Shown: positions 5,110 to 57,147 of the stretch, piece after piece | Layout: every line of letters starts with the position of its first letter | How positions within the stretch are numbered: the first letter of the stretch is position 1 | Source: Chloroflexota bacterium | Lineage (GTDB): Bacteria > Chloroflexota > Anaerolineae > JAAYEA01 | Assembly (NCBI GenBank): GCA_019873665.1 | Contig: JAIOAV010000007.1 | Span: 9,840-73,839 of the forward strand | Length of the DNA stretch: 64,000 bases | Direction: 5' to 3' | Notes under the pieces: generated by a model | The model's input: the letters and a program-made list of their open reading frames with translations, nothing else | Told to the model about the DNA's origin: nothing | The model's database searches: none | Position numbers and translations under genes: made by a program

Positions 5110-5130
5110 GTTCTCTCCCTCCTGTGCGGG

Positions 5131-6153: not shown

Positions 6154-6181
6154 TGCCTGTTTCTCCTTGCTCATTCGTTTT

Positions 6182-7015: not shown

Positions 7016-7058
7016 GTGATTCACTCCTCTGTGTGATGTTCTCGCTGAGCTGCGCACA

Positions 7059-10000: not shown

Positions 10001-13000
10001 TGTCAGTCAGATAGGTGATGGCTGTGGGCAGCGTGTCGGTCCAAACCACATGCGTGGCAATGCTGCCGCTATGGCGCAGGTGGATGGTGTAATGCAGCGT
10101 GTCGCCGGCCACAGCCCATGTCTTGTCCACCTCTTTGCTCGAATGTGATAGATCCACCACATTGACCGGCAGACTGGACGAGATGACCAGGGTGTGCTGT
10201 ACGCTGTCTGTGAGCCAAGCCGTGTTGACAATACGGCTGTTCACTGGCAACGCATCCGCAACGCGCGCCTGGAACTGGATGAGCTGCTCCCCGGGCACCA
10301 CCGGCGGCGCCGGCCGGAAACGGATGGCCAAGTTGTCGTGCGTTTGGCGATCTGCCGGCACGCCGTTTAGCAAGTACTCGATGCCGTCGGTACCACTCAG
10401 GTTCTCGATGCCGATGGCCATCGAATTCCCGCCGGCGTGCTCGCCCGTCATGGACAAATACTGCAACAGGATATCATTGCTCTCCTCGAAGAGCACCACC
10501 TCAAATGTGTAGCGGTCCATGCTGCGGAAGCGGCTCGCCTCGCGCCATTCGATCACCGTGTAGCGATGCGGCGCGACGCCAAAGGTCTGGTAGGTGAGGG
10601 TATTGGCTCCGCACACCAGATCGCCCCAGAAGGCTGCGATAAAGTTGTTCGGCAGCGCGGGGTTGGGTATTGGCATGCGCGCATACTGGCCGCTTCCCTG
10701 ACCAAAGAGCACCTGGCCATTCGTGTTGATATAGAACTCGCTGTAGTCATTGCCAAAAAACCGAAATGTGAAGCCGAGTGGAAATGGCCCCAAGCCCACG
10801 TCATCGCCACCTGGGACGCTAGTGCCGCCGCTGGCGTCTATCCAGCCAAAGGCAACGTTCCCCGTGTCGCTATCCGCCCACTCGTAACTTGCCGTCGCCC
10901 TCTGCCCGGCGGGGACGCTGCCCTGCCAGTGGAGCTTGTGACTGCTCGCGTCATACGCGGCGCCGACCGTGGCGCTGCCCGGCACGTATGCCATTTCTGC
11001 AGGCAACGGGTCGGCCAAAAGCACCCCATCGGCGCGCACCAGGCTGGCATTGCGCAGCGTGATGGTGTAGGTGAGGATATCGCCGCTCGTCGCCATCACA
11101 TGCGAGGCGTTCTTGGTGGAGAGCGATAGCTCCGGCAACGCGATCGTCGTGGCTGCATGGAACGTGTAGGGGCCGCAGACACCGTCATCTATCCGTGCTG
11201 TGGTGGAGATGATGTCGCCGGCGCCAACATCCAGCGCGATCTGCGCCTGGAAGGTGAACTGGCGCGCCGAGTGCGCTGGCATCACGCCGGCCCATTGCAC
11301 GCGATTGCTGGCGGCATCCAGGATCAGACCACCGGTGGCGCTCTCTGCCACGTAGGTCGTGTGCGGCGCGATCGGCACGACCGCAGAGGCATCCAAGTCG
11401 AGGCCACCCATATTGAGCAGTGAGATTGTGTATGTCAGCACGGCGCCGGGCTGTGCCAGCTCGGCGCTAACAGCAAAGCGCGAGTTGATCAGCGACGAAC
11501 TGATATGGAACGTCTCATTATAGCCGCGATAGTCGCCATCCCAGCCGGAGATGGCGTACAATCCGCCACACGCTGCTGCCAGCCCTAATGTGCGCCGGGG
11601 GTGGCGCAGCGATGGCAGCGTCTGCCAGGCGTCTGTGACGGGATCATAGCGCTCTACAAGAGAGAGATAGGATGTAGCGCCGCCGCCCACCAGGTAGAGA
11701 TACCCCTCTACGGCAGCCGCTGCCGCTCCCATCCGCGGGATCGTCAGGTCGCGTTTGATTGTCCAGCGATCAGTCTGCGGATCATACGCCTCCACATATG
11801 GCAGGTCGTCAATGGTGTTGTTTCGCCCACCGATGACATAGATCACGCCGTCCACGACAGCGGCCGCCGCAAAGGCGCGCGCGTGCGGCATGTTGGCCTT
11901 GACCGTCCACTGGTCGGTCGCAGGGTTGTATTCCCACGTGGTACTCACCACCTCGGCCCCATCCGAGCCGCCAATCACATAGAGGCGGCTCCCAACGGCG
12001 ACGGTGACGTGGCCGAGGCGCGGCGCGGGCATCCCGGCCTTGGATGTCCAGCTATCCGTTGCCGTGTCGTACACCTCCAGGATTGCCAGCGTGTTATCGT
12101 TATAGCCGCCCGGTGCATAGATCTTTTCGCCGATGGCGGCGATGGCGAGATTCGAAGCGCGTGTCGGCTTCGGCTGGCCGGACCGCCACTGTCTGGCCGT
12201 AGGGTCGTAGATGTCCACCAGATTCAGGTAGCCGCCGGCCCCCTCGCCGCCCACGACATAGACACGGCTGCCGACGGCGGTCACGCCGGCGCGGGAGCGG
12301 GGCACCGGCAACGGCGATTCCTCCTGCCAGGCCGGGAACGTGGTCGTATGCAGCACGGCCTGCGTGTGGCGGGCGGGATCGTGCTGAGAGGTCACGGTGA
12401 TCGTTACTATGTCGCTGTCGCCGATGGCGGCGGTGATCGGTATCGTTACGTGCAGGGCTATAGTGGCACTATCGCATGGCGCTAAGGACAATTCGGACAG
12501 TGCGCTTCCCGTGTCGGCAGAGATGATCACGGCGGGCCATCGGCGCTCTTCCGCCGCCAGGGAGAAGGTCTCCGCGAGCTGGCCGATGTTCGCCACCGTC
12601 GCCGTGTACACTACCGTAGAGCCCATCGCGCCGGCGCCGGTTTGATACGATGGCACGATCTGTGCGCCATAGGCGGGACGTACCGCGCCGAGCCATTCCA
12701 GGCTGCGGCGCATCACGTCCCAGCGCATCGCCTCCGGCCCGATCCCCTCCAGCCCGAACGCCAGATAGACGATGCGCGAGTCGCAGCGGTCGATCTGGAG
12801 CGCGCCATAGCCGTCTCCGGCGTAATACGCCAGCGGCAGGGCCAGTCCATCCAGTGGCGCGATCTCGCTGGGATAGCGCTGGTTCTGCGCGCTGTCCTCG
12901 GTGTTCAGCGAGAAGGAGAGTCCGGCAAAGATGCCGTCAGCAGTGCTAAATAGCTGCGCGATCTCCACATCGTCGCGGATGTAACGGCTGTGTAAATAGT

Positions 13001-15380
13001 CGCGATAGTATGCCGTGCCATAGCCTCGTTCCGAGTCCCAGTAGCCGATATCCTGGCCTGTGAGCAGCAGATGCCCACCGCCGTCGAGATATGCCGCCAG
13101 AGCGGCCCACGCGCCGATATAGCCGGGTGAGGTTTTGGGATGAGACCAGATGACGATGTCGTACCGCAGCAGGTCGGCGGCAGTGGGGTTGGCATTCGGT
13201 GGGTTCATGATGTCCAACGTGTCAAAAGCGTAGAGATCGTCCTTGAGCGCGCTCTCATAGTAGCGCGCCGGGCGCTCTTGCCGCCAGGCATCGCCATGCA
13301 CTACCAGGATCGTCGGCGCGTCTGCCAGTGCCACGTCCTGCCGCACATCCGCGCCCGATGTGATGGCGATTCCTTCCAGCAGCGCGCCGCGGTATCCTGA
13401 CGCGCTGCTCAGGACGCGCACGTCGTACGTGCCTACTGGCAAGGGAATGGCGTAAAAGCCCTGTGCGTCAGTCGTCACCGTAAGGGGTGTGTTCAGCACC
13501 TCGATGACCGCCAGCAGTGGTTGCCCGTCGCTGGCGGACGTGATCTGCCCACGCAATGTGCCGGAGGGCTGCGCCGACAGGGCGAAATCGAGTTGGGTGG
13601 CTGTGTCACGCAGGACGCGGATTTGGGTGACAGTCTTGGCCTGATAGCGAAAGTGGCTTGCGGTCGCGTCATATAGCCCGGTTGCCACCGCCAGACTATA
13701 GTCGCCGTTAGCATCTGTAACCGCTGTGACCATGCCGCTCCGCTCTAGGCTTACCAGCGTTACCAGCGCCCCTGCGATCGGCTGGCCGGTGGCCTGATCC
13801 ACCACGCGCCCACGGAATCGCCCATGCGGGATGACTGCGCCGACCGCCTGGTATGCATCAATCCGCCCCCAGCCATAGCTGTTGTCAGGACCGGCGTCAC
13901 CCAGGTCATGCGCCGTCTGCATGACGAGTTGTTCGGTCGCCGTGATGCTCAGCGTGGGATTGACGCCTGCGCCTTTGAGGCCCAGTGCGCGGTTGTATGT
14001 GCGGTCCGCCTCCCACAGGAGCGCGGCAAGTCCCGCCACGTGCGGCGTGGCCATGGAGGTGCCATTCCAGCCACGCTCATAGCCGCCGTTCGGCACAGAG
14101 GAGTAAATATCTACACCGGGAGCGACGACCTCCGGCTTGATCTCACCCCACGGAGAGGGGCCACGGCTGCTAAAGCTGGCAATCTGATCGAAGCTATCTA
14201 CCGCGCCGACCGCCAACGATTCGGCAAAACTGCCCGGGGAGCCGACCGTGCCGGGATCGGGGCCTTCGTTGCCCGCGGCGAAAACCGGCAGGATGCCTGT
14301 GGCACGCCAGGCGCGCACCGCCTGCAAAAAGGTGGTATCGGAGCTGATCTCGCTCCCCCAGGAGTTGGAGACGATGTCGGGCGCTTTGCTGGGATCGGGA
14401 CGCGTGCCGCGCAGGTCGGTGGGCGCCATAATCCACTGGAAACCGCGCAAGATAGCTGAATCGGTGGATTGGCCGTCGTCGGTGAACACCTTGGCGGCAA
14501 TCCAGCGCGCGCCGGGAGCTACGCCGATGGCATGCGAGCCGTCCGGCTCGATGCCGACGATGGTGCCCATCGTATGTGTGCCATGGCCGTTGCCGTCGGC
14601 GGGCACCATCGGCGACGTGCCGGTAGCATCGAACCAGTTGTAGTTGTGGTCGGTGCGATCTCCCTCATAGCCGCGATATTGTCTCAGGAGCGCGGGATGC
14701 TGGTAGGCCACACCGGTATCCATGTTCGCGACCACGATCCCTGCGCCGGTGATGCCAAAGCCGCCCCACACCAGCTCTGCACCGATCCTCTTGATGTTCC
14801 ATGGCACAACGCCATCCTGAAGCAGGGCAGGTTGGGTTTGTGTCTGGGGTGGGAGGTAGTGCGTGCGGTCGTAGCGGATGGCAGCGACATCGGCCCGCGC
14901 GGCGAGGGCGAGGATGGCATGCGCATCGCCCTGCACAGCAAGGGCGTTAACGATCCAATATGGCTCAAAGCTGGTCACGTGACCGGCGAGCGCCTCTTGC
15001 TGCAGAGCGGCCCGCACGCCCTGCTGGCTGCGGCTGGCCGTCTCTTGCAGCGTGGCTACAATCGCCTGCCGTCGCGGCAGGAGCGCCGCAATGCGCGCTG
15101 GCTCGTCCAGCGCGGCAACTTCGCGCATCCATACCAGGAAGGGGACGTGTCGGCTCGCGTCTGTGAGAGCCTGCGCGTCGGAGGCGATATCACCTGCCAA
15201 CGCTTTGAGCAACAACGGGTCGATTTTGAGGCGGATCTCCAGCGGCAACGATGTCAGCTCGTTTGCTGCGGCCGGAGCCAGTGTGTCTCCCCGCTGCGCG
15301 CGACTCACAGAGCTGGCTGACCAGAGCAATAGGATGCACAGCGTAACCAGAACCCATAAGCGAAGCGGCTTACGGCCCAT
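7059..15380 (-). CDS. Giant secreted subtilisin-like (S8) serine protease, 2,773 aa, with a long mosaic C-terminal region
   Basis: Signal peptide MGRKPLRLWVLVTLCILLLWSASSVSRA. Catalytic motifs VANMDTGV (D221, nt 14718-14720), GNGHGTH (H266, 14583-14585), GTSMATPH (S442, 14055-14057). Followed by two carboxypeptidase-regulatory-like domains, an alpha/beta module, Kelch-like repeats (nt ~11511-12299), DUF11-type repeats (DLSxSxK...GDxLTYTI) and three NIDO-like modules. Confidence 0.85.
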   Translation of the reverse strand: MGRKPLRLWVLVTLCILLLWSASSVSRAQRGDTLAPAAANELTSLPLEIRLKIDPLLLKALAGDIASDAQALTDASRHVPFLVWMREVAALDEPARIAALLPRRQAIVATLQETASRSQQGVRAALQQEALAGHVTSFEPYWIVNALAVQGDAHAILALAARADVAAIRYDRTHYLPPQTQTQPALLQDGVVPWNIKRIGAELVWGGFGITGAGIVVANMDTGVAYQHPALLRQYRGYEGDRTDHNYNWFDATGTSPMVPADGNGHGTHTMGTIVGIEPDGSHAIGVAPGARWIAAKVFTDDGQSTDSAILRGFQWIMAPTDLRGTRPDPSKAPDIVSNSWGSEISSDTTFLQAVRAWRATGILPVFAAGNEGPDPGTVGSPGSFAESLAVGAVDSFDQIASFSSRGPSPWGEIKPEVVAPGVDIYSSVPNGGYERGWNGTSMATPHVAGLAALLWEADRTYNRALGLKGAGVNPTLSITATEQLVMQTAHDLGDAGPDNSYGWGRIDAYQAVGAVIPHGRFRGRVVDQATGQPIAGALVTLVSLERSGMVTAVTDANGDYSLAVATGLYDATASHFRYQAKTVTQIRVLRDTATQLDFALSAQPSGTLRGQITSASDGQPLLAVIEVLNTPLTVTTDAQGFYAIPLPVGTYDVRVLSSASGYRGALLEGIAITSGADVRQDVALADAPTILVVHGDAWRQERPARYYESALKDDLYAFDTLDIMNPPNANPTAADLLRYDIVIWSHPKTSPGYIGAWAALAAYLDGGGHLLLTGQDIGYWDSERGYGTAYYRDYLHSRYIRDDVEIAQLFSTADGIFAGLSFSLNTEDSAQNQRYPSEIAPLDGLALPLAYYAGDGYGALQIDRCDSRIVYLAFGLEGIGPEAMRWDVMRRSLEWLGAVRPAYGAQIVPSYQTGAGAMGSTVVYTATVANIGQLAETFSLAAEERRWPAVIISADTGSALSELSLAPCDSATIALHVTIPITAAIGDSDIVTITVTSQHDPARHTQAVLHTTTFPAWQEESPLPVPRSRAGVTAVGSRVYVVGGEGAGGYLNLVDIYDPTARQWRSGQPKPTRASNLAIAAIGEKIYAPGGYNDNTLAILEVYDTATDSWTSKAGMPAPRLGHVTVAVGSRLYVIGGSDGAEVVSTTWEYNPATDQWTVKANMPHARAFAAAAVVDGVIYVIGGRNNTIDDLPYVEAYDPQTDRWTIKRDLTIPRMGAAAAAVEGYLYLVGGGATSYLSLVERYDPVTDAWQTLPSLRHPRRTLGLAAACGGLYAISGWDGDYRGYNETFHISSSLINSRFAVSAELAQPGAVLTYTISLLNMGGLDLDASAVVPIAPHTTYVAESATGGLILDAASNRVQWAGVMPAHSARQFTFQAQIALDVGAGDIISTTARIDDGVCGPYTFHAATTIALPELSLSTKNASHVMATSGDILTYTITLRNASLVRADGVLLADPLPAEMAYVPGSATVGAAYDASSHKLHWQGSVPAGQRATASYEWADSDTGNVAFGWIDASGGTSVPGGDDVGLGPFPLGFTFRFFGNDYSEFYINTNGQVLFGQGSGQYARMPIPNPALPNNFIAAFWGDLVCGANTLTYQTFGVAPHRYTVIEWREASRFRSMDRYTFEVVLFEESNDILLQYLSMTGEHAGGNSMAIGIENLSGTDGIEYLLNGVPADRQTHDNLAIRFRPAPPVVPGEQLIQFQARVADALPVNSRIVNTAWLTDSVQHTLVISSSLPVNVVDLSHSSKEVDKTWAVAGDTLHYTIHLRHSGSIATHVVWTDTLPTAITYLTDTFTGPEGAAYNPVTQQIVWRGDIPPQSDLIFGFAAQISAAWGSGEMITNTVEIAAAGETWQRHATTTIAAADLSSSRKTVDKASAVSGDILTYEIAVVNRAPVPAGDVQVWDPLPAHTAYVADSVTGGATYDPAHNAISWTGPISAAVWAQTTYTWADSRTGADVVFDWIEIRDIGQDLGLADDDYVYFELPFAVSFYDATYSHLAVGSNGTLHFADTYLGRDNTCLPSGNSYGVPALIAVFWDELNPFAAGHVYYAVLGDAPRRRLVVSWDGVASATGDPVSFQAILHEGSRDIVLQYRDVMTGNALYDQGSSATIGIQADEHTGTLYACAQPLLADELAIRFVAVPQPSEKVISFQVTVDDGLPLNTALVNRAVIGYQSAISYTRAVTTLVNLVDLSPSRKDVSPTSAGAGDVLTYTITLQNQGSQPAPHVRLVDALPTSTVYITDSVTGGAAYDPAQRQIIWEGSIPGTQPAIPASWVDSDSGQVTFAWRDATGDVSLPGGDDVALGPFPIGFSFRFFGQEYAEFYINSNGQVLFGAGSNRYSNVSIPNPGEPNNYIAAFWDDLTIPTTGGLYYRTMGEAPHRYLVVQWHQVRRIGSQDLLTFQIVLFEGQEDILLQYLTMPGTSGSGSSATVGIENADGSDGLQYLYDGSPAANAIHDNLAVRLTPPRPATLGMHQVSFQVRVAADTPLQHEITNRAVISDGVQSTFTRAITVTANTVDLSPSRKSVDHEVAAAGEALRYTITLRNRGTGTAPGVVVHDPLPVGATYVADSATAGAVYEPERHRIVWQGSVRPGIEQTIAFAVRTDPLAANGSVITNTVWISDGITAPLSRTARTTLRSADLSPSTKESSVASALPGEMVTYTILVRNAADVATSARVTDVLPAGLVYVPDTLFASSGIASEQDGVITWQGVALERSMVIIRFAAQVEENAAPGSLIVNEALIRGGVGVAFMRSAPLAIGGAERRLHLPLVMKSAE

Positions 15381-26479: not shown

Positions 26480-27265
26480 CTATGGCCTATCGCTGCGCGG
26501 CGTGTGAATGCAGAGGCGCGCCATAGTGCCACCGTCCACCACCAGTACCGACCCCACTACAAAGTCAGCATCGTCTGAGGCGAGATACACGCACGCTTTG
26601 GCAATGTCGAGCGGCTGGCCGAGACGTTGCCGGGGGATCGTCCGACCAGCGGCAGAAAAGTCTATATCAGGGGCCTCTATATGGTTGCGTGGCACGTCAA
26701 TCCAGCCCGGCGCGATGGCATTAACGCGGATGTTCATAGGTGCCAGCTCTAACGCGACCTCGCGCGTCCAGGCGGCGATAGCGCCCTTTGTCCCGGCATA
26801 GACTGAGTGGCCGTGCATACTGGCGAGGCCGTGCACAGATGTCATGTTGATGATGGCCCCACCGCCACGGGATAGCATGTGCTTGCAGGCGCGCTGTGCG
26901 CAAAAGAACTGACCACGGATGTTGATATGGTAGAGCATGTCGAACTGCGCTGGCGTGACGTCGAGGAACTCCCATCTCTGCGTCACGCCCGCGTTGTTGA
27001 CGAGCACATCCAAGCCACCAAGCCAGTGAGCCGCCTCATCCACCACGCGCAGGCACTCGCTGACCTCGCCAAGGTCGGCCTGTATGACGTGCGCTCTGCC
27101 GCCAGCGGCAAGGATCTCTGCCGCAGCGCTGTCCGCACCGCTGCGACTGCTCGCGTAATGCAAGACGACTGCCGCTCCTTGCCGAGCAAACTCCAGTGCC
27201 ACTTCTCTCCCGATGCCCGTGCCAGCTCCCGTTACCAGAGCCAGCTTACCCTCGAGTCTTCTCAT
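26480..27265 (-). CDS. Short-chain dehydrogenase/reductase (SDR) family oxidoreductase
   Basis: Start MRRLEGKLALVTGAGTGIG (RBS AGGAGGGAA). NNAG motif and YAGTK catalytic motif. Confidence 0.85.
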   Translation of the reverse strand: MRRLEGKLALVTGAGTGIGREVALEFARQGAAVVLHYASSRSGADSAAAEILAAGGRAHVIQADLGEVSECLRVVDEAAHWLGGLDVLVNNAGVTQRWEFLDVTPAQFDMLYHINIRGQFFCAQRACKHMLSRGGGAIINMTSVHGLASMHGHSVYAGTKGAIAAWTREVALELAPMNIRVNAIAPGWIDVPRNHIEAPDIDFSAAGRTIPRQRLGQPLDIAKACVYLASDDADFVVGSVLVVDGGTMARLCIHTPRSDRP

Positions 27266-27387
27266 GCATTCCCTCCTGTCGAAAACGTTCACAGCGGTAG
27301 CAGTCTAATCCGATCCGGCCTGAATGCCAAGGCAGCAGGTGGATCAGATAGTGAGGAAAGCTGAGAAGATGTTAAACGGGGAGCCTG

Positions 27388-30300
27388 CTATCTTGGCCCA
27401 CTACCTCGCTGCCCAACGGTCGTCCAGAGGCTCGGCTCTAACGTCTCTTTGATGGCGCGCAACAGCGTCGCAACATCGTAGGGCTTCTGCAAGAAGCGAA
27501 ACCCCTTTTCCTCGATCACTGTCCAATTGGCATCGCGGTCAGTATAGCCGCTGCTCAGAAGAACCGGCAGATTCGGCTGTTGCATGCGAAGCTTCTCCGC
27601 GAGCTGGATGCCGCTTTCGCCGGGCAGGACCACATCGCTGAAGAGGAGGTCAACTCGCCCCTCCTCTCGCTCGTAGATCTGCATCGCCTCCACCGCGTTG
27701 GGCGCATCCAACACCGTATAGCCATTCTCGACAAGCGCCCGGCGTAGCGCGCTGCAGACACTCTTCTCGTCTTCCACAAGGAGCACGCGCTCCTGTTTCC
27801 CCTGTAACCACTCGAGCGAGATCTCCTTCTCGCCTTCTTCCTCCAGGTTGACGAGCGCTGCCGGCAGGTATGCGCGGAATACAGATCCCCGATCTCGCTT
27901 GCTCTCAACGCTGACCCATCCGGCATGTTGGGCAACGATGCCGTATACGACGGCTAGCCCGAGGCCGGTTCCTTTGCCTGCCTCTTTTGTGGTGAAGAAC
28001 GGCTCGAATAGGTGTTGCAGGACCTCTTCATCCATGCCGATACCTGTGTCCTCCACCGAAAGACATGCGAACCTGCCCTTGCGCGATCCGACGGCCCCTG
28101 TTGGGCCATCCAGTGAGACGTTCTCGGTACGGATGGTGAGCTTCCCTCCGTCTGGCATGGCGTCGCGGCCATTGATGGCCAGGTTGATGACCACCTGCTC
28201 GATCTGGCCCAGATCGGCCCTCACGGGATCGAGGGAGGGATCGAGTGCCATGATCAGCCTGACATCCTCGCCGATCAGTCGCTGCAACAACTTGCCCATG
28301 TCCAACACAACATCGTTGAGGTTCAACACGCGCGGCTGCAGCATCTGCCGACGGCTGAACGCCAGCAACTGGCCGGTCAAGGCCGCTGCTCGTTCGCCCG
28401 CCTTTCTGATCTCCTCGACATCCAGCCGGCGTGCGTCATCCACAGGGAGGTTCTTGAGCAGGAAATCGCTGTAACTGATGATCGCGGTGAGCAAGTTGTT
28501 GAAATCGTGAGCCACACCCCCGGCAAGCCGCCCCACAGCTTCCATCTTTTGCGCCTGGAGGAGTTGCACCTGCATCTTCTTCCGCTCCTCTTCAGATTGC
28601 TTGCGGATGATGATGCCGGCCAGCGCGTTGGCCACCGCCGAAAGGAACTCCATCTCCTGCGAGTCAGGTTGGTGTCCTGCGCGCAGCCGCAGCGCGATCA
28701 AGCCGATCATCTTGTCGGCAGACAGGATGGGAACGCCGCAGTGCCCACCCTTGTCATCCTCGCCAAAGTAGGGCTCCTCATCCACACACCTGGTGATTTG
28801 GACACGCTGTGTGCCGATGAATCGTCCATACGGGCGGTTGTCTGCCGTCACGCGGGCGCATCGTTCGTGTATATGACTGTCAAGGCCGCGCCAGACCCTC
28901 ATGACCAACACCTCTGGCCCTTCGGCAAGAAAAATCGCGCCGCTGGGCGCAAATGCCTCGCTGAGCGTTGCCAGGATCGCATCCAGAGCGCGCTCCAGCA
29001 TCTGATCCAGGTTCATCTCTTCCAGCGAGAGCCGCAACAGCAGATTGATCACCGTCTGCGCCTCGTGGCTGCGGACCAACTCCTCTTGCGCCTGCTTGCG
29101 CTCAGTGATATCTTCGAGGCTCCCCTCGTAGTATAGCGTGCGGCCTGCCTCGTCCCGCACGATGCGAAAGCTATCGCGCACCCAGATGACCGCGCCATCG
29201 CGACGACGCAATTGCAGCTCGAAATCGCTCACCAGCCCGCGCTGCTCAACCTCGGTCAGCTCACGCTGCCGGTCTCTGGGTTCCAAGCATAGGTCGTTCA
29301 CGTTGGTCGCCAGAAGGCTCGCCTGGTCAGCAAAGCCCAACATCTGCACCAACGCAGGGTTTGCTTCCAGGATCTTGCCTTCCGGCGTGGTGCGATAGAG
29401 CCCGACCGGCACATCGTCAAACAGGCTGTGATAGCGCGCTTCGCTGACGCGGAGCTCTGCTTCGGCGCGTCGCCGCTCGGCCACCTCTTGCCGCGCTGCT
29501 TCATAGAGGCGGGCGTTGTCAATGGCCATAGCTGTTTGGCTGGCCAATGTGGTCAGCGTCAACCGGTCATCCAGCGAGTGCGGCTCGCCTGAGAGTTTCG
29601 GGCCCACAACCAGAATGCCCACTAACTCCCCCTTGACCTTGAGCGGAATCCAGGTCTCCGCTTGGAGCTGCACCAGGTCCTCCCGCTCTTCACGCCAGAG
29701 CGCCCGGAACTGTGGTATGACCTCGACATCCTGCTTGGTCAGCGTGTTCTCGTGGGTCAAGAGCCAGTGCACCAACGGATGGTCTGCGCGGATGCGAATC
29801 TCACGAGAGATATCCAACCCTTGTTGCGCTGCCAGACTGAACGCGCCACTCTTTTCGTGCCTGAGAAGAAAGGCAGCGTGTGCAATGTGCATCGTCTGAG
29901 TGATCTCGTTGAGGATCATGTTCGTAAGCACGTTAATGTCCAAAACCGAAGCCACTCTCTGGCCCAGTCGCTGCAACATGAGACTGGAATCGTATCTCTC
30001 GCGGAAGAAGATGCTATCTATCCAAAGCTGGATTCGGCTGCGCAATGGCTCTGCGACGAGAGCCGTCACAAGCGCTGCAGCAAAAGAGAGGAGGAAGAAC
30101 TGTGGACCGCTGGTATCATGCACTACCCGCGCTGCCAGCGAGATCATCAAGAAATAGCTGGTGCCGATGATGACGGTAGGCACCGAGTAGAGAAGGCCCT
30201 TGCGCACGACGAGAGTGATATCCAACAGCTGGTGGCGCAGGATCGCATAGGTGATCAAGAGGGCGCCAATCGCGTTGCACGTAATGTCCACCGGATAGTG

Positions 30301-30867
30301 CTGCAACACGGTGGCGTTGGTGAGCGCGCCGATGGCGATAACCAGGACGACAAGGAAGAGGTACTTGATCCGCTCGCGATGCAGGCTATCCTTTGCCTGG
30401 CGATACCCGCGCCACAGATCGAGTGCCGAGTGGCCGACAAAGAAAGCCCATGAGCCGCCGATGAGCGCGAGGAAGGGTCCATATTCGTTGTGGAATTGCC
30501 CGTTCACCACATAGGCATTTCGGACGCCGTAGCCGAGCACGTTGATGACCTGTATGATCGCATAGGAGACGAGCCCCCATCTGAGTAGGTCTCTGTGCCG
30601 TCTTTGCAGGAACTCCTGCACGAAGGCAAAGAAGGTGATGGGCATGGCAGTAGCGGGAGGGATGAGGAGCCGGTTCCAAAACAGCGGCGTCATGATCCCT
30701 GTGTTCAGGTGCATCATAAAGGAGCAGAAGCTCCAGAGCAACATCGAGAGCAGATACAGCCCAAAAAGCCGGCCCATCTTGCCAGCGATGCGGCCCCTGG
30801 CGACGACGAGTAGCAGAATGGCATAACAGAGTAGGGAGACGAGCGGGATCAATGCAGCAGGGTTCAT
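27388..30867 (-). CDS. Hybrid sensor histidine kinase: N-terminal multi-TM (7TM-type) sensor, GAF, PAS, GAF, HisKA, HATPase, receiver
   Basis: About 7 hydrophobic helices in the first ~280 aa. PAS RYHSLFDDVPVGLYRTTPEGKILEANPA; H-box VAHDFNNLLTAI; ATPase boxes INGRDAM, DTGIGM, GTGLGLA; receiver RVLLVEDE...LLFSDVVLPGESG. Confidence 0.85.
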   Translation of the reverse strand: MNPAALIPLVSLLCYAILLLVVARGRIAGKMGRLFGLYLLSMLLWSFCSFMMHLNTGIMTPLFWNRLLIPPATAMPITFFAFVQEFLQRRHRDLLRWGLVSYAIIQVINVLGYGVRNAYVVNGQFHNEYGPFLALIGGSWAFFVGHSALDLWRGYRQAKDSLHRERIKYLFLVVLVIAIGALTNATVLQHYPVDITCNAIGALLITYAILRHQLLDITLVVRKGLLYSVPTVIIGTSYFLMISLAARVVHDTSGPQFFLLSFAAALVTALVAEPLRSRIQLWIDSIFFRERYDSSLMLQRLGQRVASVLDINVLTNMILNEITQTMHIAHAAFLLRHEKSGAFSLAAQQGLDISREIRIRADHPLVHWLLTHENTLTKQDVEVIPQFRALWREEREDLVQLQAETWIPLKVKGELVGILVVGPKLSGEPHSLDDRLTLTTLASQTAMAIDNARLYEAARQEVAERRRAEAELRVSEARYHSLFDDVPVGLYRTTPEGKILEANPALVQMLGFADQASLLATNVNDLCLEPRDRQRELTEVEQRGLVSDFELQLRRRDGAVIWVRDSFRIVRDEAGRTLYYEGSLEDITERKQAQEELVRSHEAQTVINLLLRLSLEEMNLDQMLERALDAILATLSEAFAPSGAIFLAEGPEVLVMRVWRGLDSHIHERCARVTADNRPYGRFIGTQRVQITRCVDEEPYFGEDDKGGHCGVPILSADKMIGLIALRLRAGHQPDSQEMEFLSAVANALAGIIIRKQSEEERKKMQVQLLQAQKMEAVGRLAGGVAHDFNNLLTAIISYSDFLLKNLPVDDARRLDVEEIRKAGERAAALTGQLLAFSRRQMLQPRVLNLNDVVLDMGKLLQRLIGEDVRLIMALDPSLDPVRADLGQIEQVVINLAINGRDAMPDGGKLTIRTENVSLDGPTGAVGSRKGRFACLSVEDTGIGMDEEVLQHLFEPFFTTKEAGKGTGLGLAVVYGIVAQHAGWVSVESKRDRGSVFRAYLPAALVNLEEEGEKEISLEWLQGKQERVLLVEDEKSVCSALRRALVENGYTVLDAPNAVEAMQIYEREEGRVDLLFSDVVLPGESGIQLAEKLRMQQPNLPVLLSSGYTDRDANWTVIEEKGFRFLQKPYDVATLLRAIKETLEPSLWTTVGQRGSGPR

Positions 30868-30882
30868 GCTCGTTTGTCCTTG

Positions 30883-32499
30883 CTAGGACGGAACAGTTCC
30901 TCCGTTTTCAGCGCTGAGCCTCATCAAGAGGGTAATGTCGTTATCAGTCGCATTCATGTGCGGCGGCTTGAGGTGCGCCAGATCCGCTCCCGCTGCCTGT
31001 TTCGCCATCATGTAGGCGCGGAAGGTGCCCCTGTTAAACAGCGTTACTTGCAGGGCCCGCGCCTCGATCATTGACTCGTAATCGGCGTAGAACGGGTTCA
31101 GCTCGCGCAGGCGCTGCCGGACTAGGCTCTCAACAACCTCTTGATCTACCGAATCCTGTGGCTCGATGTATAGATGCAGGATCGGGCGATTCTCGATGTA
31201 CTCCTTGCGTATGGACCACTCCTCATACGGGATACCTGTGCGGATGATCGCCTGCCAGACCATTTTTTCGTCTATCAGCCCTGTGAAACCGGCAAGGTCT
31301 ATAAAGTCGCCGGATCGCCCGACGAACTCGAACTGCGGCAGGTTCACACCCGTTTCTTCATCTCGCAGCGCGATGAACTTGATGACATCGTGCGTGCGAT
31401 AGCGCAAGAGCGGCTTGCCATAGTAGTTGGTCACCACCAGCTCGTACCGCTTGTCAGTTCTCACCTGGTTCAGCAGGACAGTGCTAGGCATATAAGACGG
31501 ATCACGCCGCCACTTCACCCACTCCTCATCCGGAATGAACTCGAGAAAGTCGGCATCGGGGAAGAAGGTCATCCCCTTGACGTTCCACGTCTGCGTGGCC
31601 AGCACGCCGCCCTCCGTGCTGCCGTACTGCTCAAAGGGGATGACTCCCCAATAGTGTGCGATCTTGTCTTTGTAGATGGAGGTGTCCATGCCGCCGCATT
31701 GTAGTGCCTTGACCCTCCAGATATCCTTGGGCAGCATAGGTCTACCTTCGAGCTTGCTGCGCAGCCATCCTCGCGCTAGTCGCGCCAGTGCCCGCGGGTG
31801 TAGCATCCGCGCCGAGGGCTTGGTGCTCTGCGCGCCCTCGGCAAAACGCTCCGCCATTTTGACCAGCACCACCGAGATCGAGCCCAGCACATCAATGCCG
31901 GTAACCAGCGCGGTCTCAAAGCTCTTTTCGATGCGCTCCTGAAAACTCATCTGCTCCGTCTCTTCTAGCGACGGCACAAAGTGAAAGCTAAAATGCTCGG
32001 CCAACGCTCGCAGCACCACGCCGCTCAGATAAGGGCGCGGTGGGGTGTTGTAGACGAGCACATCATTCTCTTCCAGACGCACGTCCCCCTTCCAGCGAGC
32101 GGAAGCCAGGATGATGCCAGCAAGAGTCCCCTCACCCAACTGATTATAGGCGAGCCGCGTGTATGGGACCCACTTGAGTGTGCCGGAGCGTCCAGAGGTG
32201 TGCGCCCACGTATACGGCTCCTCCGGCAACATGTCTGTCCGGCGATCTTCCAGATATGGCTGGTAGTCCTCGTAGGTGGTGATGGGCACAATCTCACGGA
32301 ACTCGGCCACTGTTGATAGCTTGCTATCTCCCATGAAGCGTCGCCCGATCCCACAGTTGCTCAGAAGCCCAATCTGCTCGCGCAATAGGCGCTCCTGAAT
32401 CGCCATGAACTCGTCTAGGCTGAGGTCTAGGAAACCGCAGTATTTGGTCCAGATCTCGTCTCTACGACCGCGCCGCAATAGCTCATTCGCTGTTGGCAT
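30883..32499 (-). CDS. GH3-family (auxin-responsive-GH3-like) adenylate-forming acyl-acid amido synthetase homologue
   Basis: 538 aa. Motifs HTSGRSGTLKWVP, EQYGSTEG and LLRYRTHDVI correspond to the three adenylation motifs of plant GH3 enzymes. N-terminus is typical of bacterial GH3-like proteins. Confidence 0.75.
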   Translation of the reverse strand: MPTANELLRRGRRDEIWTKYCGFLDLSLDEFMAIQERLLREQIGLLSNCGIGRRFMGDSKLSTVAEFREIVPITTYEDYQPYLEDRRTDMLPEEPYTWAHTSGRSGTLKWVPYTRLAYNQLGEGTLAGIILASARWKGDVRLEENDVLVYNTPPRPYLSGVVLRALAEHFSFHFVPSLEETEQMSFQERIEKSFETALVTGIDVLGSISVVLVKMAERFAEGAQSTKPSARMLHPRALARLARGWLRSKLEGRPMLPKDIWRVKALQCGGMDTSIYKDKIAHYWGVIPFEQYGSTEGGVLATQTWNVKGMTFFPDADFLEFIPDEEWVKWRRDPSYMPSTVLLNQVRTDKRYELVVTNYYGKPLLRYRTHDVIKFIALRDEETGVNLPQFEFVGRSGDFIDLAGFTGLIDEKMVWQAIIRTGIPYEEWSIRKEYIENRPILHLYIEPQDSVDQEVVESLVRQRLRELNPFYADYESMIEARALQVTLFNRGTFRAYMMAKQAAGADLAHLKPPHMNATDNDITLLMRLSAENGGTVPS

Positions 32500-33253
32500 C
32501 TGTTGCCTCCCTCGCTTCAGTTGTACCTCTTCTTGCCGTGATGGCGAATGGCATCGGAGACCAGGGACGCTGGCCCAGAGGCTGAGCCACCCGAATCTCC
32601 GTAAAGCCGCACTCGCTGAGCAGCGCGCGCCATTCGTCTACAGTATGAACGCGGGCCACGGCAGCAGCTTCTGCCCGGGCGCGAGCGATATTACGCGAGG
32701 GAAGAAAGTAAAGAAACGCAAAGAGACGTAGTATCGTCCCAATGCCCGGCCATTTCCATGCTGAATGAGCGGCAACATCTGCGATGGCCAGCACACCTTT
32801 GGGCGCAAGCATGCGATGCATCTCACTGATCAGCGTCCTCGCCTCCATGTGGTGTGTGCCCAGGGCGCAGATCGCTACATCAAAGACCCCATCGACCAGT
32901 GGCAACGCCATCGCTGACCCGCACACCAGGGTGATACGCGAGTTGAATGGAGCGATCATCTGTCGAGCCGCGTAGAGCATGCCGGGTGTGATATCCACTC
33001 CCACAACCTGCCCTACCGGTTCTGGCCCACTTACCAGCTTGCGCGGGATCAGTGCTGTCCCTGTGGCGATATCCAGCACAAGACTATCTTGCCGGAGAGA
33101 GCCCTCATGAAGACGCACCAGATCGAGCAACCACTCGACAAAGCGCTCATAGCTCCATCCCCAAAAACGACGCAACTCAGCATCAACCACCGCCTCGTAA
33201 TTCGCTGCGAGGTCTGCGAATGCCTTGATGATCGCGTGCGAGTCCGTTGACAT
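32483..33253 (-). CDS. Class I SAM-dependent methyltransferase
   Basis: Start at MSTDSHAIIKAF (RBS GAGAAGG). Motif I VLDIATGTA, then VVGVDITPGML and DVAICALGTHH. Its stop overlaps the GH3 start by 17 nt. Confidence 0.8.
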   Translation of the reverse strand: MSTDSHAIIKAFADLAANYEAVVDAELRRFWGWSYERFVEWLLDLVRLHEGSLRQDSLVLDIATGTALIPRKLVSGPEPVGQVVGVDITPGMLYAARQMIAPFNSRITLVCGSAMALPLVDGVFDVAICALGTHHMEARTLISEMHRMLAPKGVLAIADVAAHSAWKWPGIGTILRLFAFLYFLPSRNIARARAEAAAVARVHTVDEWRALLSECGFTEIRVAQPLGQRPWSPMPFAITARRGTTEAREATDANSE

Positions 33254-33762
33254 GTTACCTTCTCGGATGGAAATGACCTGGAAGGGACTGTGCGATAAGG
33301 TTGGCTTCTTTTCCCTCCATAGAAAAAGTCGCGGGGTACACCACGACATGACCGTCGCCGCTGCGTTCTTCAACTATCATGACGCGAAAGCGGCGCTCTG
33401 GTTACTCTGATTATAGGACGAAACGCCAAGAGGCGAGAAACGGGGATGCAGAAATGGCGAAAGCGGTGCACCGTATCGCGCGGGGCGCTGCTGATGCAGT
33501 GAGGCTCACGAGTTTGGTCGTGCTGGGGATAACTCGCAGATCTGCAGAGGGCAACGACCGGGTGCATCCCGCGTCCTCTTCTTGGGCCCCCCACAGTGTA
33601 TTCGCTGGCGTTGGTCGAGCAGTATGACGTGGCTATTCGGACGATTGGACAGGAGCCGATCGGCCGTCCCCCTGGTTGAGGTTGATGTCGCGAAGAGTGA
33701 TCAGAGTGGATCGGCAAACGGGAAGCACGGCTCGCTGCCGCGTCGGGCGTGCGTGGGACATG

Positions 33763-34167
33763 TCACAGCAGCGCCCAGGCATGCAGCGAGCCAACCGCAT
33801 TCCTGTTATGGCTTGTGTCCAGACCTCCCAGTAATTCGCAAAAGCCCGCGTTATAGTGCTCTCGGATCTGATCATCGATCACATCGCTCGCCAGTGCCTC
33901 TTCCAGCGCTAATCGCACGCTGGTTGTGCCGTTGGGCAGCGGCTGGCAGTAAATACACACCCATATGGGCAATGCTCTTGGGCCTGGCAGCCAGCCGCCG
34001 ATTACTCTGGTGATGAACTGCGATCCCTGATAGCCCTCGATCTCCTGATCGATCTCGTGTCGCACCTTCATGCCGCCCTTGAGCAAATACTGCCGCAGCA
34101 TGTCAATACATCCGGCGGGATCCTCTGCCAGTGTGAAACTCAGAGTGCGAGATACACGTGATATCAT
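33763..34167 (-). CDS. Hypothetical protein, 134 aa, no family recognised
   Basis: Strong RBS GGAAGGAG 7 nt before the ATG and protein-like composition. No motif I can assign. Confidence 0.5.
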   Translation of the reverse strand: MISRVSRTLSFTLAEDPAGCIDMLRQYLLKGGMKVRHEIDQEIEGYQGSQFITRVIGGWLPGPRALPIWVCIYCQPLPNGTTSVRLALEEALASDVIDDQIREHYNAGFCELLGGLDTSHNRNAVGSLHAWALL

Positions 34168-34373
34168 GTTGATAGCTCCTTCCCCAGGGGCTAAACGTGC
34201 GCCGTGAATAGCCGCAGGCGGTGCCCCGATCTCGACCCATGGCTATTCTCATGCAATGCGATGATTGCTGCTATTATGCTATCTCCTGCTATGCTGGGTC
34301 AATAGTACTCCAGTACTGCATGAGAGCGGGCGGGATGCTGGCGTGACGTTGGCGGCTGTAATGGCAAGCCTGG

Positions 34374-34402
34374 TTGCGTCGGGGTTCATCCTATGCTAAT
34401 AT
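34374..34402 (+). promoter_or_regulatory. Sigma-70-type promoter for the fucosidase gene
   Basis: TTGCGT-N17-TAATAT, ~35 nt upstream of the ATG at 34438. Confidence 0.45.
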
Positions 34403-34437
34403 GGGCCGTCCTATGAGAAAAAGGGAGGAGACAGGCG

Positions 34438-52952: not shown

Positions 52953-54848
52953 ATGTCTGAGCAGAAACCAGAGATACAGATCAAGGGGTACACTGGCAAG
53001 ATCCTGAAGGTTGATCTCACCACTGGCGCGATGGAGGTGGAGACACCATTGCCCGATTTCTACCGGCGTTATCTTGGCGGCAACGGCTTTATTGCCTACT
53101 ATTTGCTGAAAGAGGTTCCCAAAGGTGCCGACCCACTCGGCCCGGAGAACCGCCTGGTCATCGCCGGCGGCACGCTTACCGGCGTGCCGGTGGCTGGCGC
53201 GGGGCGCAATCACGTCGGGGCCAAGTCGCCGCTCACCGGTGGCTACGGCGAGGCGGATGTGGGAGGCTTTTTCGGCGCAGAGCTGCGACGCGCGGGGTTC
53301 GATGCCGTCGTCATCAGAGGCGAAGCGGCCAAGCCGGTCTATCTCTGGATCCACGACGGCCAGGCGGAGATCAAACCCGCCGATCATCTGTGGGGCACGG
53401 CGACCGCTGCCTGCTACGCGGCGATCCGCGAAGAGCTGGGAGAGAGGCGCGCTCGCATGGCGCTGATCGGCCCAGGCGGGGAAAAGATGGTGCGCTTTGC
53501 CTGCGTGATCAATGACCTGAAACACGCGGCGGGCCGCACCGGCCTCGGCGCTGTGATGGGCGCGAAAAAGCTCAAAGCTGTCGTGGCGCTGGGTCGCGAG
53601 GCGGTGCCCGTCGCCAACGCCGACAAGGTCAAAGAGCTGGCTGCTTGGTATCGCGATCACTGGCGCGAGAAACAGGAGCGGATGCACGATCTGGGCACGC
53701 CCGGTGGCATCATGGACTTGAACACGACCGGCGCACTGCCCACGCGCAACTTTCAGGATGGGCAGTTCGAAGGCGCGGAGAAGATCAGCGGCGAGAGCTT
53801 GCGCGACACCATCACGATCGATCGCGGCGGCTGCTTTGCCTGCCCGGTGCGTTGCAAGCGCGTGGTCAAAGTAAATGACGCGGACTATCAGGTGGACCCT
53901 GAGTATGGTGGGCCTGAATACGAGACGATTGGCGCTTTCGGCTCCAACTGCGGCGTGGACGATCTGCGCGCCATCGCCAAGGCAAACGAGATCTGCAACG
54001 CCTCCGGTCTGGATACGATCGCGACAGGCATGGCGGTGTCCTTTGCCATGGAGTGTTTCGAGAATGGGCTGCTGACGCTGCAGGATACGGGCGGCCTGGA
54101 CCTGCATTTCGGCAACGCGGCGGCCATGGTGGAGCTGACCCGTCGCCTCGCTGCGCGCGAGGGGATCGGCGACCTGCTGGCGGAAGGACCGGCGCGAGCG
54201 GCGCGCGTGATCGGCCCTGCGGCCGAGCCTTTCGTGCTGTGCGTCAAGGACCAGCCATTCCCGATGCATGAATGCCGTACCCGGCACGGTCAGGCACTGG
54301 GCTATGCGGTCTCGCCGACCGGCGCCGATCACATGCACAACTTTTGGGATGGCGGGCTTGCCAAGTCGCCGCTGGGCGAAGACCTGCAGGGGTTAGGCGT
54401 CTATGTGTCGGTGCCGCAGACCGAGCTGAACGCGGACAAGGTGCGCGCTTACACCGTCAACGTGAACAGGCGCTGGCTGGCAAATCACATCGGCCTCTGC
54501 ATGTTAATCAGCTGGTCCAACCAGCAGCTCATTGATCTGCTCGGGGCTATCACCGGCTGGCAGACCAATCTCTTTGAGCTGATGCAGACCTGCGAGCGCG
54601 GCGTAACCATGGCGCGCGCCTTCAACCTGCGCGAGGGGCTGACGCGAGCCGATGACACGCTGCCGCTGCGCATACAGCAGCCGCACAAGAGCGGCACCGT
54701 CAACGAGAAACCGGTAGACCCGGAGGTGTTGCAGGAGGCCATCACGACCTTCTACGGCATGATGGGCTGGGATCCGCAGACCGGCGTGCCCACCAGGGCT
54801 AAGCTGCAAGAGCTGGACATCGCCTGGGTTGAGGACGCGATGCGATAG
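52953..54848 (+). CDS. Aldehyde:ferredoxin oxidoreductase (AOR) family, tungsto/molybdopterin enzyme
   Basis: 631 aa. GYTGKILKVDLTTG, LGGNGF, GRNHVGAKSPLTGG, AVVIRGEA, CFACPVRCKR and GLDTI blocks are typical of AOR-family enzymes. Confidence 0.85.
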   Translation: MSEQKPEIQIKGYTGKILKVDLTTGAMEVETPLPDFYRRYLGGNGFIAYYLLKEVPKGADPLGPENRLVIAGGTLTGVPVAGAGRNHVGAKSPLTGGYGEADVGGFFGAELRRAGFDAVVIRGEAAKPVYLWIHDGQAEIKPADHLWGTATAACYAAIREELGERRARMALIGPGGEKMVRFACVINDLKHAAGRTGLGAVMGAKKLKAVVALGREAVPVANADKVKELAAWYRDHWREKQERMHDLGTPGGIMDLNTTGALPTRNFQDGQFEGAEKISGESLRDTITIDRGGCFACPVRCKRVVKVNDADYQVDPEYGGPEYETIGAFGSNCGVDDLRAIAKANEICNASGLDTIATGMAVSFAMECFENGLLTLQDTGGLDLHFGNAAAMVELTRRLAAREGIGDLLAEGPARAARVIGPAAEPFVLCVKDQPFPMHECRTRHGQALGYAVSPTGADHMHNFWDGGLAKSPLGEDLQGLGVYVSVPQTELNADKVRAYTVNVNRRWLANHIGLCMLISWSNQQLIDLLGAITGWQTNLFELMQTCERGVTMARAFNLREGLTRADDTLPLRIQQPHKSGTVNEKPVDPEVLQEAITTFYGMMGWDPQTGVPTRAKLQELDIAWVEDAMR

Positions 54849-57101: not shown

Positions 57102-57147
57102 TTCGTCCGGCGCAAGCGGTATCATTTTCAGGGAAAAGGAGCTAAGG

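Follow-up and report, generated by a model that had tools for sequence, protein, structure and literature searches.

Why should a gene for a homologue of the plant GH3 enzymes lie immediately upstream of a gene for a membrane-bound sensor? This question is raised by a 64-kb stretch of a Chloroflexota genome (contig JAIOAV010000007.1, positions 9,840 to 73,839; hereafter the window, the numbering of which is used for its genes throughout), where three genes are tightly packed on the minus strand in the order class-I S-adenosylmethionine (SAM)-dependent methyltransferase (MT), GH3-family adenylate-forming acyl acid amido synthetase homologue and hybrid histidine kinase (hereafter the sensor). 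GH3 homologues are numerous in bacteria and, to our knowledge, nearly all of them are uncharacterised; similarly, we know of almost nothing on cell-cell or environmental signalling in Anaerolineae and Dehalococcoidia. The preliminary description of the window proposed that the three genes constitute a module for the synthesis, modification and perception of a carboxylate signal. This is still the best reading of the comparative data, although several of its details had to be revised. The best explanation of these data is that the three genes represent one copy of a widespread cassette, which has as its core a predicted GH3 amide-forming ligase encoded directly upstream of a sensor with a nine-helix membrane plus GAF input. 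A plausible reading, if one somewhat short of probable, is that the ligase makes a lipophilic acyl-amino-acid conjugate, which would be methylated where an MT is present and perceived by the adjacent sensor.

Conserved linkage of the GH3 and sensor genes

In order to find out whether the linkage is maintained in other genomes, it was approached from both sides. For the GH3-side scan, an alignment of GH3 homologues was compared with one GTDB genome per species, resulting in 80 loci (numbered with the prefix L) with GH3 proteins 43–66% identical to that of the window. These are mainly from Anaerolineae and Dehalococcoidia (Chloroflexota), plus Spirochaetota, and include a complete chromosome (CP070841.1) and a 3.2-Mb contig; the closest relatives of the window protein are found in Anaerolineae-type genomes. 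An open reading frame (ORF) homologous to the membrane and GAF part of the window sensor directly follows the GH3 stop codon in 78 of the 80 loci. The median gap between the two genes is 17.5 nt and does not exceed 50 nt in 66 of the 78 loci, 11 of which display overlaps (−4/−1 nt). The two exceptions are L057, where no sequence is left downstream, and L001, where the order is sensor-MT-GH3. Besides MT, sensor and lineage-specific genes, no gene family was found to be conserved around GH3 in the 80 loci.

For the sensor-side scan, metagenome contigs were searched for the juxtamembrane motif [IV]D[RS][LIM]FFRE[KR], considering the Anaerolineae-type sensor subset. A GH3 gene was located immediately upstream of the sensor in 63 of the 71 metagenome loci with room for it, and four to five more loci have the order sensor-MT-GH3; since the motif was derived from GH3-linked sensors, this reciprocity holds for that sub-family only. 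GH3 is clearly absent upstream of the sensor only in L118 and L138. In the former (1522–4929) genes for PAS-STAS and STAS proteins are found upstream, a partner-switching context, while in the latter (2564–7021) the upstream gene encodes a DEAD-box helicase. Conservation in related genomes, on which the preliminary description had made its proposal depend, is thus apparent from either side of the gene pair.

More distant relatives show the same arrangement. An independently sampled sensor (P0240; 38% identity, 19 contigs) is encoded in the order MT-GH3-sensor, and the 17-nt overlap of the MT and GH3 genes seen in the window is repeated in a relative from this context (L171). In an exhaustive HMMER survey of 1.84 billion cluster representatives, 195 GH3 proteins were retrieved at E ≤ 1e-30, a number that rose to 1369 when E ≤ 1e-3 was allowed. 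Among the distant loci, L164 (GH3 36% identical) encodes an MT resembling isoprenylcysteine carboxyl methyltransferase (ICMT), GH3, a sensor kinase with receiver and an HD-GYP protein; L165 (35%) encodes a response regulator, an ICMT-like MT, GH3 and sensor; in L162 (35%) an MT::GH3 fusion gene overlaps the sensor gene by 4 nt; and in L168/L169 (32%) GH3 is followed by a sensor kinase and a REC-GAF-HD-GYP regulator. In all these loci the sensor matches the input-module profile from end to end (152–398 bits).

GH3 and sensor have also diverged together. Across the 68 loci in which both genes are complete, their distance matrices correlate with r = 0.85 (Mantel p = 0.001), a value inflated by shared phylogeny. 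In metagenome-assembled genomes (MAGs) containing two cassettes (L058/L079, L027/L080 and L022/L065), the set of nearest neighbours in other genomes is the same for a GH3 as for its own sensor, which indicates that the two genes were passed on and duplicated together. Both adjacency and co-divergence, as expected of a cognate signal-synthase/receptor pair, are therefore observed.

The same observations would, however, suit a trigger enzyme, that is, a GH3 that docks on the loops or GAF domain of the sensor and reports the supply of substrate, ATP or amino acid, its product not being a free ligand. The strictly upstream position of GH3 and the 11 overlaps among the 78 loci would favour production of the two proteins at a 1:1 ratio, the cytoplasmic loops of the sensor are highly conserved, the proteins diverged together, and fusions of GH3 to ICMT-like enzymes (see below) place it at the membrane. 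Against this, no GH3::sensor fusion was encountered among the matches listed (120 + 150 GH3 homologues and 120 sensor homologues), and the full conservation of catalytic motifs and the association with MTs argue that the chemistry of GH3 matters. We consider such a co-sensor role quite unlikely.

Identity and catalytic features of the GH3 protein

The window GH3 (30883..32499, minus strand; 538 aa) is assigned to the family on the basis of the agreement of hidden Markov model, motif and fold. The Pfam GH3 N-terminal and GH3_M domains are matched with 46.3 and 48.9 bits, respectively, both over the cut-off of 23.6, whereas GH3_C (20.3 bits) is slightly under it; precomputed matches to all three domains are present in many close homologues. 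The three adenylation motifs indicated in the preliminary description are all present and represent the nucleotide-binding motifs of the family (TSG..G..K, YG.(S/T)E and (Y/F)R.GD): HTSGRSGTLKWVP at aa 100–112, YGSTEG at aa 292–297 and RYRTHDV at aa 366–372. Residues T101, S102, G103, K109, T295, E296, R366, Y367 and D371 are conserved in 93–100% of 130 homologues, which again suggests that GH3 chemistry is of importance.

An AlphaFold model was obtained using 18 homologues as input (predicted local distance difference test score, pLDDT, 72). When this model was compared with the PDB by Foldseek, the best 20 matches were all to plant GH3 enzymes (E 2e-19 to 2e-15), and PaaK-like ligases came next. 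The GH3 fold, the other point on which the preliminary description had staked its proposal, is hence recovered by both profile and structure model. With its catalytic motifs intact and the fold of plant GH3, the protein looks like a functional enzyme, and catalytic activity is predicted from these features.

The preliminary description held that no substrate had been established for any bacterial GH3 homologue. This is now outdated: the lyso-ornithine lipid synthetase OlsH of Singulisphaera acidiphila, characterised in 2025, couples fatty acids with ornithine in a reaction that requires ATP (PMC12493201). OlsH is the only characterised bacterial GH3, and its gene shares an operon with those for OlsG, a lipid N-methyltransferase, and OlsI, an O-acyltransferase (PMC12493201; PMC12971839). 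With 15.7 bits in the NCBIfam model NF052613 (cut-off 620), the window protein does not qualify as an equivalog of OlsH; its relatives in L066 and L079 score 37 and 33.6 bits. Pfam scans of the recurrent neighbour clusters of the 80 GH3 loci identified no OlsI-like alpha/beta-hydrolase, and the published list of orders with OlsH homologues includes none from Chloroflexota or Spirochaetota (PMC12971839). The families of the DVU_1553 ligase and DVU_1556 methyltransferase were also considered and rejected, the NCBIfam scores of 18 bits (cut-off 300) and 46 bits (cut-off 155), respectively, reflecting likeness at the superfamily level only.

The sensor: a conserved input module with exchangeable outputs

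By its predicted domains the window sensor (27388..30867, minus strand; 1159 aa) is a hybrid sensor histidine kinase, possessing a HisKA H-box, an HATPase_c domain and a receiver aspartate. From the N-terminus, it contains a membrane domain (aa 1–287; 30007..30867) composed of the HisKA_7TM region, a cytoplasmic loop, two further helices and the motif Q..IDS.FFRERYD; a first GAF domain (aa 300–460; 29488..29970), recognised by Pfam GAF, GAF_2 and GAF_3 as well as by Foldseek; a PAS domain (aa 474–597; 29077..29448; Pfam PAS_9, TIGR00229); a second, variable GAF domain (aa 618–753; 28609..29016; Pfam GAF_2); a kinase core (27859..28533) of HisKA (aa 779–841; H-box AHDFNN) and HATPase_c (aa 887–1003); and a C-terminal receiver (aa 1028–1140; 27448..27786; Response_reg) with the acceptor aspartate in FSDVVLP. 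The HisKA_7TM (PF16927) match at aa 10–218 scores 45.1 bits against a cut-off of 28.6, and those to HisKA, HATPase_c and Response_reg score 35.9, 77.2 and 71.9 bits, respectively. The kinase core is CckA-like (419 bits in NCBIfam, under the equivalog cut-off). Pfam thus confirms the domain calls made previously for all three proteins (Methyltransf_25/11, GH3 and HisKA_7TM-GAF-PAS-GAF-HisKA-HATPase_c-Response_reg).

Two other points concerning the sensor needed amendment. It had been described as a seven-transmembrane protein and does match HisKA_7TM, but the AlphaFold model of residues 1–460 (pLDDT 82) displays nine long membrane helices, namely the Pfam 7TM region and a conserved two-helix hairpin (aa 223–287). 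It had also been stated that no response-regulator output is encoded nearby. Indeed, no second receiver (REC) domain is present in the 64-kb window; the kinase nevertheless carries a receiver of its own, and in other lineages OmpR-type and REC-GAF-HD-GYP regulators adjoin the cassette. The window kinase has no Pfam match to an Hpt domain, and the genes for its phosphorelay partners may lie in another part of the genome.

For the sensor, the positive-inside rule predicts an external N-terminus and a cytoplasmic GAF domain. A positively charged cytoplasmic loop, AILR..LLDI..V.RKG, is conserved between helix 7 and the final two helices, and alignment reveals two further conserved cytoplasmic segments, R..YR.......RNR..Y and the juxtamembrane Q...DR.FFRE.YD. 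Foldseek matched the sensor model to solved structures in its GAF part only (target-normalised TM-scores of 0.7–0.77), with no solved-structure match to the membrane domain. In the two papers found to mention it, HisKA_7TM figures as an uncharacterised sensor domain, with no ligand or partner protein described (PMC5847659). The window sensor resembles HisKA_7TM proteins generally in that its N-terminal region matches PF16927; the GH3-linked sub-family differs from them in the addition of the two-helix hairpin, the DR.FFRE.YD motif and GAF.

The first GAF domain contains the near-invariant motif G.L..GPKLS...(H/Y)S..D, including K424 and S426, and D284 and E290, which follow the last membrane helix, are near-invariant as well. 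Such residues would be expected if GH3 and MT acted on the sensor itself, altering K424 or the juxtamembrane acidic residues, for example, in an adaptation reminiscent of CheR/CheB; enzymes of the ICMT family can act on protein carboxylates. We regard covalent modification of the sensor as very improbable: ligand binding explains the conserved residues of the GAF loop equally well, one GH3 context (L160, see below) lacks a sensor altogether, and the characterised GH3 enzymes all use small-molecule acids (PMC12493201; plant GH3 structures).

What varies is the remainder of the sensor. A Pfam scan of 54 complete partner sensors found HisKA_7TM in 50 and GAF in 42–46 of them. HATPase_c is present in 35 sensors, accompanied by HisKA in 29, HisKA_3 in 5 and HisKA_2/HWE in 2; others carry HD_5 of the HD-GYP type (16), GGDEF (1) or STAS (1), and receivers and PAS domains occur in 8 and approximately 15 sensors, respectively. 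Further GGDEF and HD-GYP forms were numerous in the search for protein homologues. By this comparison, the conserved part of the sensor is the membrane domain plus the first GAF only, and the PAS domain, second GAF and CckA-like core of the window protein are lineage-specific additions, being variable among the 54 partner sensors. Of the two GAF domains and the PAS domain to which the preliminary description drew attention, only the first GAF belongs to the conserved core; PAS and the second GAF are variable, as is the kinase output. GH3 remains tied to the input module while outputs are exchanged, which suggests that it acts on the signal-input side.

The survey of outputs also bears on whether GH3 and MT are ordinary regulated targets, that is, metabolic or membrane-lipid genes (e.g. 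for an aminolipid) that share an operon with a sensor to which they have no ligand relation. A downstream OmpR-type regulator could autoregulate the operon in some lineages, and OlsH makes a precursor of a structural lipid (PMC12493201). Among the alternatives considered, this explanation fits worst, because many outputs are enzymes of cyclic di-GMP (c-di-GMP) metabolism: an HD-GYP-type output is present in 16 of the 54 sensors and GGDEF or STAS in others, and outputs of these kinds do not act on transcription directly. Furthermore, the linkage has outlasted both output swapping and ancient duplication, the neighbourhoods share no third gene, be it for an OlsI-like O-acyltransferase or another protein, and the OlsH model gives only 15.7–37 bits against its cut-off of 620. 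A merely shared operon thus seems decidedly improbable to us.

Methyltransferases associated with GH3

The window MT (32483..33253, minus strand; 256 aa) is by Pfam a class-I enzyme of the UbiE/Methyltransf_11/25 type (Methyltransf_25, 62.6 bits; Methyltransf_11, 61.7 bits), with the SAM-binding motif I VLDIATGTA. It has no NCBIfam match at the equivalog level, every score being far under cut-off. The best PDB sequence match, to the peptide C-terminal carboxyl methyltransferase LahSB (E 2e-8), covers the SAM core only and was rejected as a clue to the methyl acceptor.

A class-I MT of this type is encoded directly upstream of GH3 in 82 of the 119 loci with room for it, at a median distance of 13 nt (≤ 30 nt in 46 of 72 cases). 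In 11 loci without a class-I MT (L066, L013, L136, L067, L082, L085, L137, L074, L110, L157 and L113) the same position is occupied by an unrelated ICMT/PEMT-like membrane MT, and both types are present in L009 and L102. The membrane enzymes match Pfam PF04191, contain an RHPG motif and show weak NCBIfam matches to isoprenylcysteine O-methyltransferase, LmtA and MddA. In three 50%-identity clusters (P0265, P0293 and P0303) an ICMT-like MT is naturally fused to the N-terminus of GH3; one of these fusions is the one coupled to the sensor in L162. Apparent in-frame fusions of class-I MT and GH3 in L002 and L114 were discarded, since translation revealed a stop codon between the genes. Replacement by a non-homologous MT together with MT::GH3 fusion points to methylation as part of GH3 chemistry in those lineages, at the membrane, and methylation appears to be a step of the GH3 pathway wherever an MT is encoded. 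Most Dehalococcoidia loci, however, have no MT, so that the core does not depend on methylation; in these cassettes a gene for an OmpR-type regulator follows. The membership of the MT in the module, as originally proposed, therefore holds for the majority of loci, with a different enzyme taking its place in some and none in most Dehalococcoidia.

One sub-clade, P0265, lacks the sensor. Here the gene for the ICMT/PEMT-like::GH3 fusion (744 aa) is followed, with a 4-nt overlap, by that for a B12-binding radical-SAM enzyme and then by a MATE exporter gene (L160, 5001–10603; L161, 153–3862). This cluster looks like a small biosynthetic set for an exported, possibly lipid-like, metabolite, and the radical-SAM and MATE context of L160 fits a small-molecule product.

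The latter context is of relevance to the possibility that the cassette removes a signal instead of making it. The sensor would then detect a free fatty or aromatic carboxylic acid from the environment or membrane, and GH3 and MT would conjugate and inactivate this acid in a negative feedback. Linkage and co-divergence also fit such turnover, and co-expression of a ligand-removing enzyme with a sensor is a known design, as in the Rpf cluster, where RpfB turns over the diffusible signal factor (DSF). Moreover, most plant GH3 enzymes inactivate hormones such as indole-3-acetic acid (PMC10747189). The association of the GH3 fusion with a radical-SAM enzyme and a MATE exporter in L160 looks biosynthetic, not catabolic, and constitutive co-translation of a receptor with the destroyer of its ligand would blunt signalling unless further regulated. 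We deem turnover of the signal unlikely.

Cassette variants in other lineages

A cassette is present in a cultured species, Anaerolinea thermolimosa IMO-1 (L006; NZ_DF967965.1, 3327–11133). In this locus MT (6230–6988) and GH3 (6992–8590) lie between two sensors that have input modules of the same kind, an upstream membrane-GAF-GAF-GGDEF protein (3327–6218) and a downstream membrane-GAF-GAF protein with an HD-GYP-type output (8626–11133), i.e. by a diguanylate cyclase and a putative c-di-GMP phosphodiesterase. The opposite c-di-GMP outputs around MT-GH3 suggest a push-pull switch. The layout sensor (~970 aa)-MT-GH3-sensor (~840 aa) is also found in L005, L007, L010 and L016, and a related one with a shorter upstream sensor (685–708 aa) in L008, L011 and L014. 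Kinase-type sensors, too, would be tied to c-di-GMP in three of the distant loci: a stand-alone HD-GYP protein is encoded directly after the sensor kinase in L164 (5331–5909), and an RpfG-like REC-GAF-HD-GYP regulator follows it in L168 (6933–8498) and L169 (4921–6486).

In a sub-clade of Anaerolineales, genes for two coenzyme A (CoA)-transferase subunits are found just upstream of MT, about 2 kb upstream of the cassette (L033, L037, L041, L044–L046, L052, L053 and L040). A gene for an ADP-forming acyl-CoA synthetase lies just after the sensor gene in L029, L037, L041, L044, L046 and L053 and, on the opposite strand, in L001. These neighbours may hint at organic-acid metabolism or represent inherited synteny only. 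In a sub-clade of Dehalococcoidia (L065, L071, L072, L076 and L078–L080) the sensor is 679 aa long and is always followed by a protein of 190–235 aa without a Pfam match (clusters 20 and 32), which could be an unrecognised partner of this short-sensor variant.

Organization and surroundings of the cassette in the window

The packing of the three co-directional genes was reproduced on the minus strand exactly as described before, MT and GH3 overlapping by 17 nt and GH3 and sensor lying 15 nt apart. The MT start is the ATG chosen in the preliminary description, and homologues align from residues 1–8. At the MT/GH3 junction (32483..32511) the MT stop codon TGA (32485–32483) falls 17 nt within the GH3 gene, and the Shine-Dalgarno sequence GGGAGG (32511–32506) is located inside the MT gene, 6 nt ahead of the GH3 ATG. 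The overlap and ribosome-binding site (RBS) are consistent with translational coupling. The 15-nt spacer separating the GH3 stop from the sensor ATG (30868..30882) contains AAGGA.

Upstream of MT, positions 33254–34437 represent a gene-poor stretch of about 1.2 kb. It contains an orphan ORF of 134 aa (33763–34167, minus strand), preceded by an RBS-like GGAGC and without a Pfam match, a sigma-70-like promoter match (34302–34273) and, about 75 nt ahead of the MT start, a terminator-like hairpin with a T-run (33347–33328). The promoter/terminator scan gave 11 terminator-like matches, where 5.2 ± 2.7 were expected, most of them within coding sequence. An Rfam scan of the whole window yielded no match, and hence no known riboswitch or leader in the 1.2 kb upstream of MT.

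Several neighbouring genes were considered as parts of the cassette and rejected, their positions not being kept in other loci: those for a short-chain dehydrogenase/reductase (26480–27292), an aldo/keto reductase, an HpcH aldolase, an Opp-type ABC transporter and a fucosidase. A fucosidase homologue is found near three related cassettes, although on the opposite side relative to the window. Farther away, a 2773-aa ORF (7059–15380, minus strand) with subtilase (Peptidase_S8) and CarboxypepD_reg domains, Kelch beta-propeller repeats and six DUF11 repeats probably encodes a large secreted or cell-surface protease. The genes for an aldehyde:ferredoxin oxidoreductase (52953–54848) and a prismane/CO-dehydrogenase-family protein (56917–58803) are consistent with an anaerobic Chloroflexota host.

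Proposed function of the cassette

Taken together, we propose that GH3 would adenylate a carboxylic acid, which is most likely lipophilic (a fatty acid, for instance), and couple it to an amino acid or another amine. Where an MT is present, the conjugate would be methylated. It might then enter the membrane or bind the GAF domain, and we infer that it is in this way the cognate ligand of the adjacent sensor. The latter would relay the signal to a lineage-specific output, in the window that of a hybrid histidine kinase and elsewhere an HD-GYP-type or GGDEF c-di-GMP enzyme or another type of kinase. A lipophilic acyl-amino-acid is favoured by the OlsH precedent, the membrane-embedded or fused MTs, the polytopic receptor and the radical-SAM/MATE context.

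Several points weigh against this proposal. Taken by themselves, the comparative data equally allow GH3 to make, activate or destroy a signal or to bind the sensor. An MT is missing from most of the cassettes in Dehalococcoidia. The GH3 model is of moderate confidence only, and co-transcription of the window genes is deduced solely from their spacing. The reciprocity seen from the sensor side covers a sub-family at least 39% identical to the window module, not all HisKA_7TM proteins. Finally, many loci are from MAGs, in which mis-binning is possible, and the counts are inflated by close relatives.

A bolder version, speculative but possible, is that the cassette represents an unrecognised signalling system in which a GH3, often tethered to the membrane via an ICMT-like MT, makes a lipo-amino-acid or its methyl ester, and a nine-helix plus GAF receptor drives phosphorelay or c-di-GMP turnover, organised as a push-pull switch in A. 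thermolimosa. Such a system would be a prokaryotic counterpart of the logic by which the plant enzyme JAR1 makes the hormone conjugate jasmonoyl-isoleucine (JA-Ile). If true, it would add a new signal chemistry and a new type of receptor, in evolutionary parallel to plant hormone conjugation. The analysis places a whole clade of GH3 proteins (~195 clusters at 50% identity, E ≤ 1e-30) in a signalling, not a lipid-structural, context and provides the orphan HisKA_7TM plus GAF sensor family with a candidate source of ligand. The cassette is frequent in Anaerolineae and Dehalococcoidia, which are dominant and poorly understood in anaerobic digesters, sediments and soils. The hypothesis is testable, since the cultured A. 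thermolimosa IMO-1 has the cassette and both enzymes are small and soluble.

Comparison with known systems

Our literature search found no report of a GH3-sensor pairing, nor of GH3 linked to histidine kinases, GAF or HisKA_7TM. In agreement with the preliminary description, the cassette thus appears to be undescribed. Its parts can, however, be compared with several known systems.

JA-Ile, the product of JAR1 (GH3.11), serves the COI1-JAZ receptor as its active ligand. With plant GH3 enzymes, and JAR1 especially, the window GH3 has in common the family, the fold and the three nucleotide-binding motifs and, in our proposal, the principle that the amide conjugate is the species perceived by a receptor. 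It differs in being only 15–18% identical to them and in being a bacterial protein encoded in an operon with its presumed receptor, the latter being a polytopic membrane plus GAF sensor and not an F-box co-receptor. The OlsH-OlsG pair resembles the cassette in that GH3 adjoins an MT. The obligatory partner of GH3 in the cassette is the sensor, however, and no conserved OlsI-like gene is found nearby. By analogy, the OlsH precedent points to lipid-like, not auxin-like, chemistry for the cassette GH3.

In the LuxM-LuxN and CqsA-CqsS pairs, the gene for an autoinducer synthase lies beside that for a multi-helix membrane sensor kinase which perceives its lipophilic product. The cassette is similarly an enzyme-sensor gene pair whose paralogous copies diversify together. 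The enzyme is a GH3 ligase, unlike the acyl-transfer or pyridoxal phosphate (PLP)-dependent enzymes of those pairs, and the receptor has nine helices plus GAF, with an output that is swapped among kinase, HD-GYP and GGDEF.

The Rpf/DSF system of Xanthomonas comprises the acyl-CoA ligase RpfB, RpfF, the hybrid kinase RpfC and the HD-GYP protein RpfG. The combination of an adenylate-forming enzyme, a membrane sensor kinase and an HD-GYP output recurs in L164 and L168; however, the cassette ligase is an amide-forming GH3 and not a FadD-type CoA ligase, the membrane domain of the sensor is of another family, and no RpfF-type enoyl-CoA hydratase is conserved among the cassette neighbours.

The methyl esters of N-acyl amino acids (NAMEs) are bacterial metabolites and structural analogues of the N-acyl homoserine lactone signals; we know of no identified genes for NAME synthases. 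NAMEs represent the chemistry expected of an acyl-amino-acid ligase acting with a carboxyl methyltransferase, a chemical analogy only and not evidence. Their producers are Alphaproteobacteria, unrelated to the hosts of the cassette, and no link between NAMEs and a GH3 gene is known to us. Overall, the cassette is best classed as a variant of the design in which an enzyme is paired with a cognate membrane sensor, with a real chance that it represents a new signalling chemistry.

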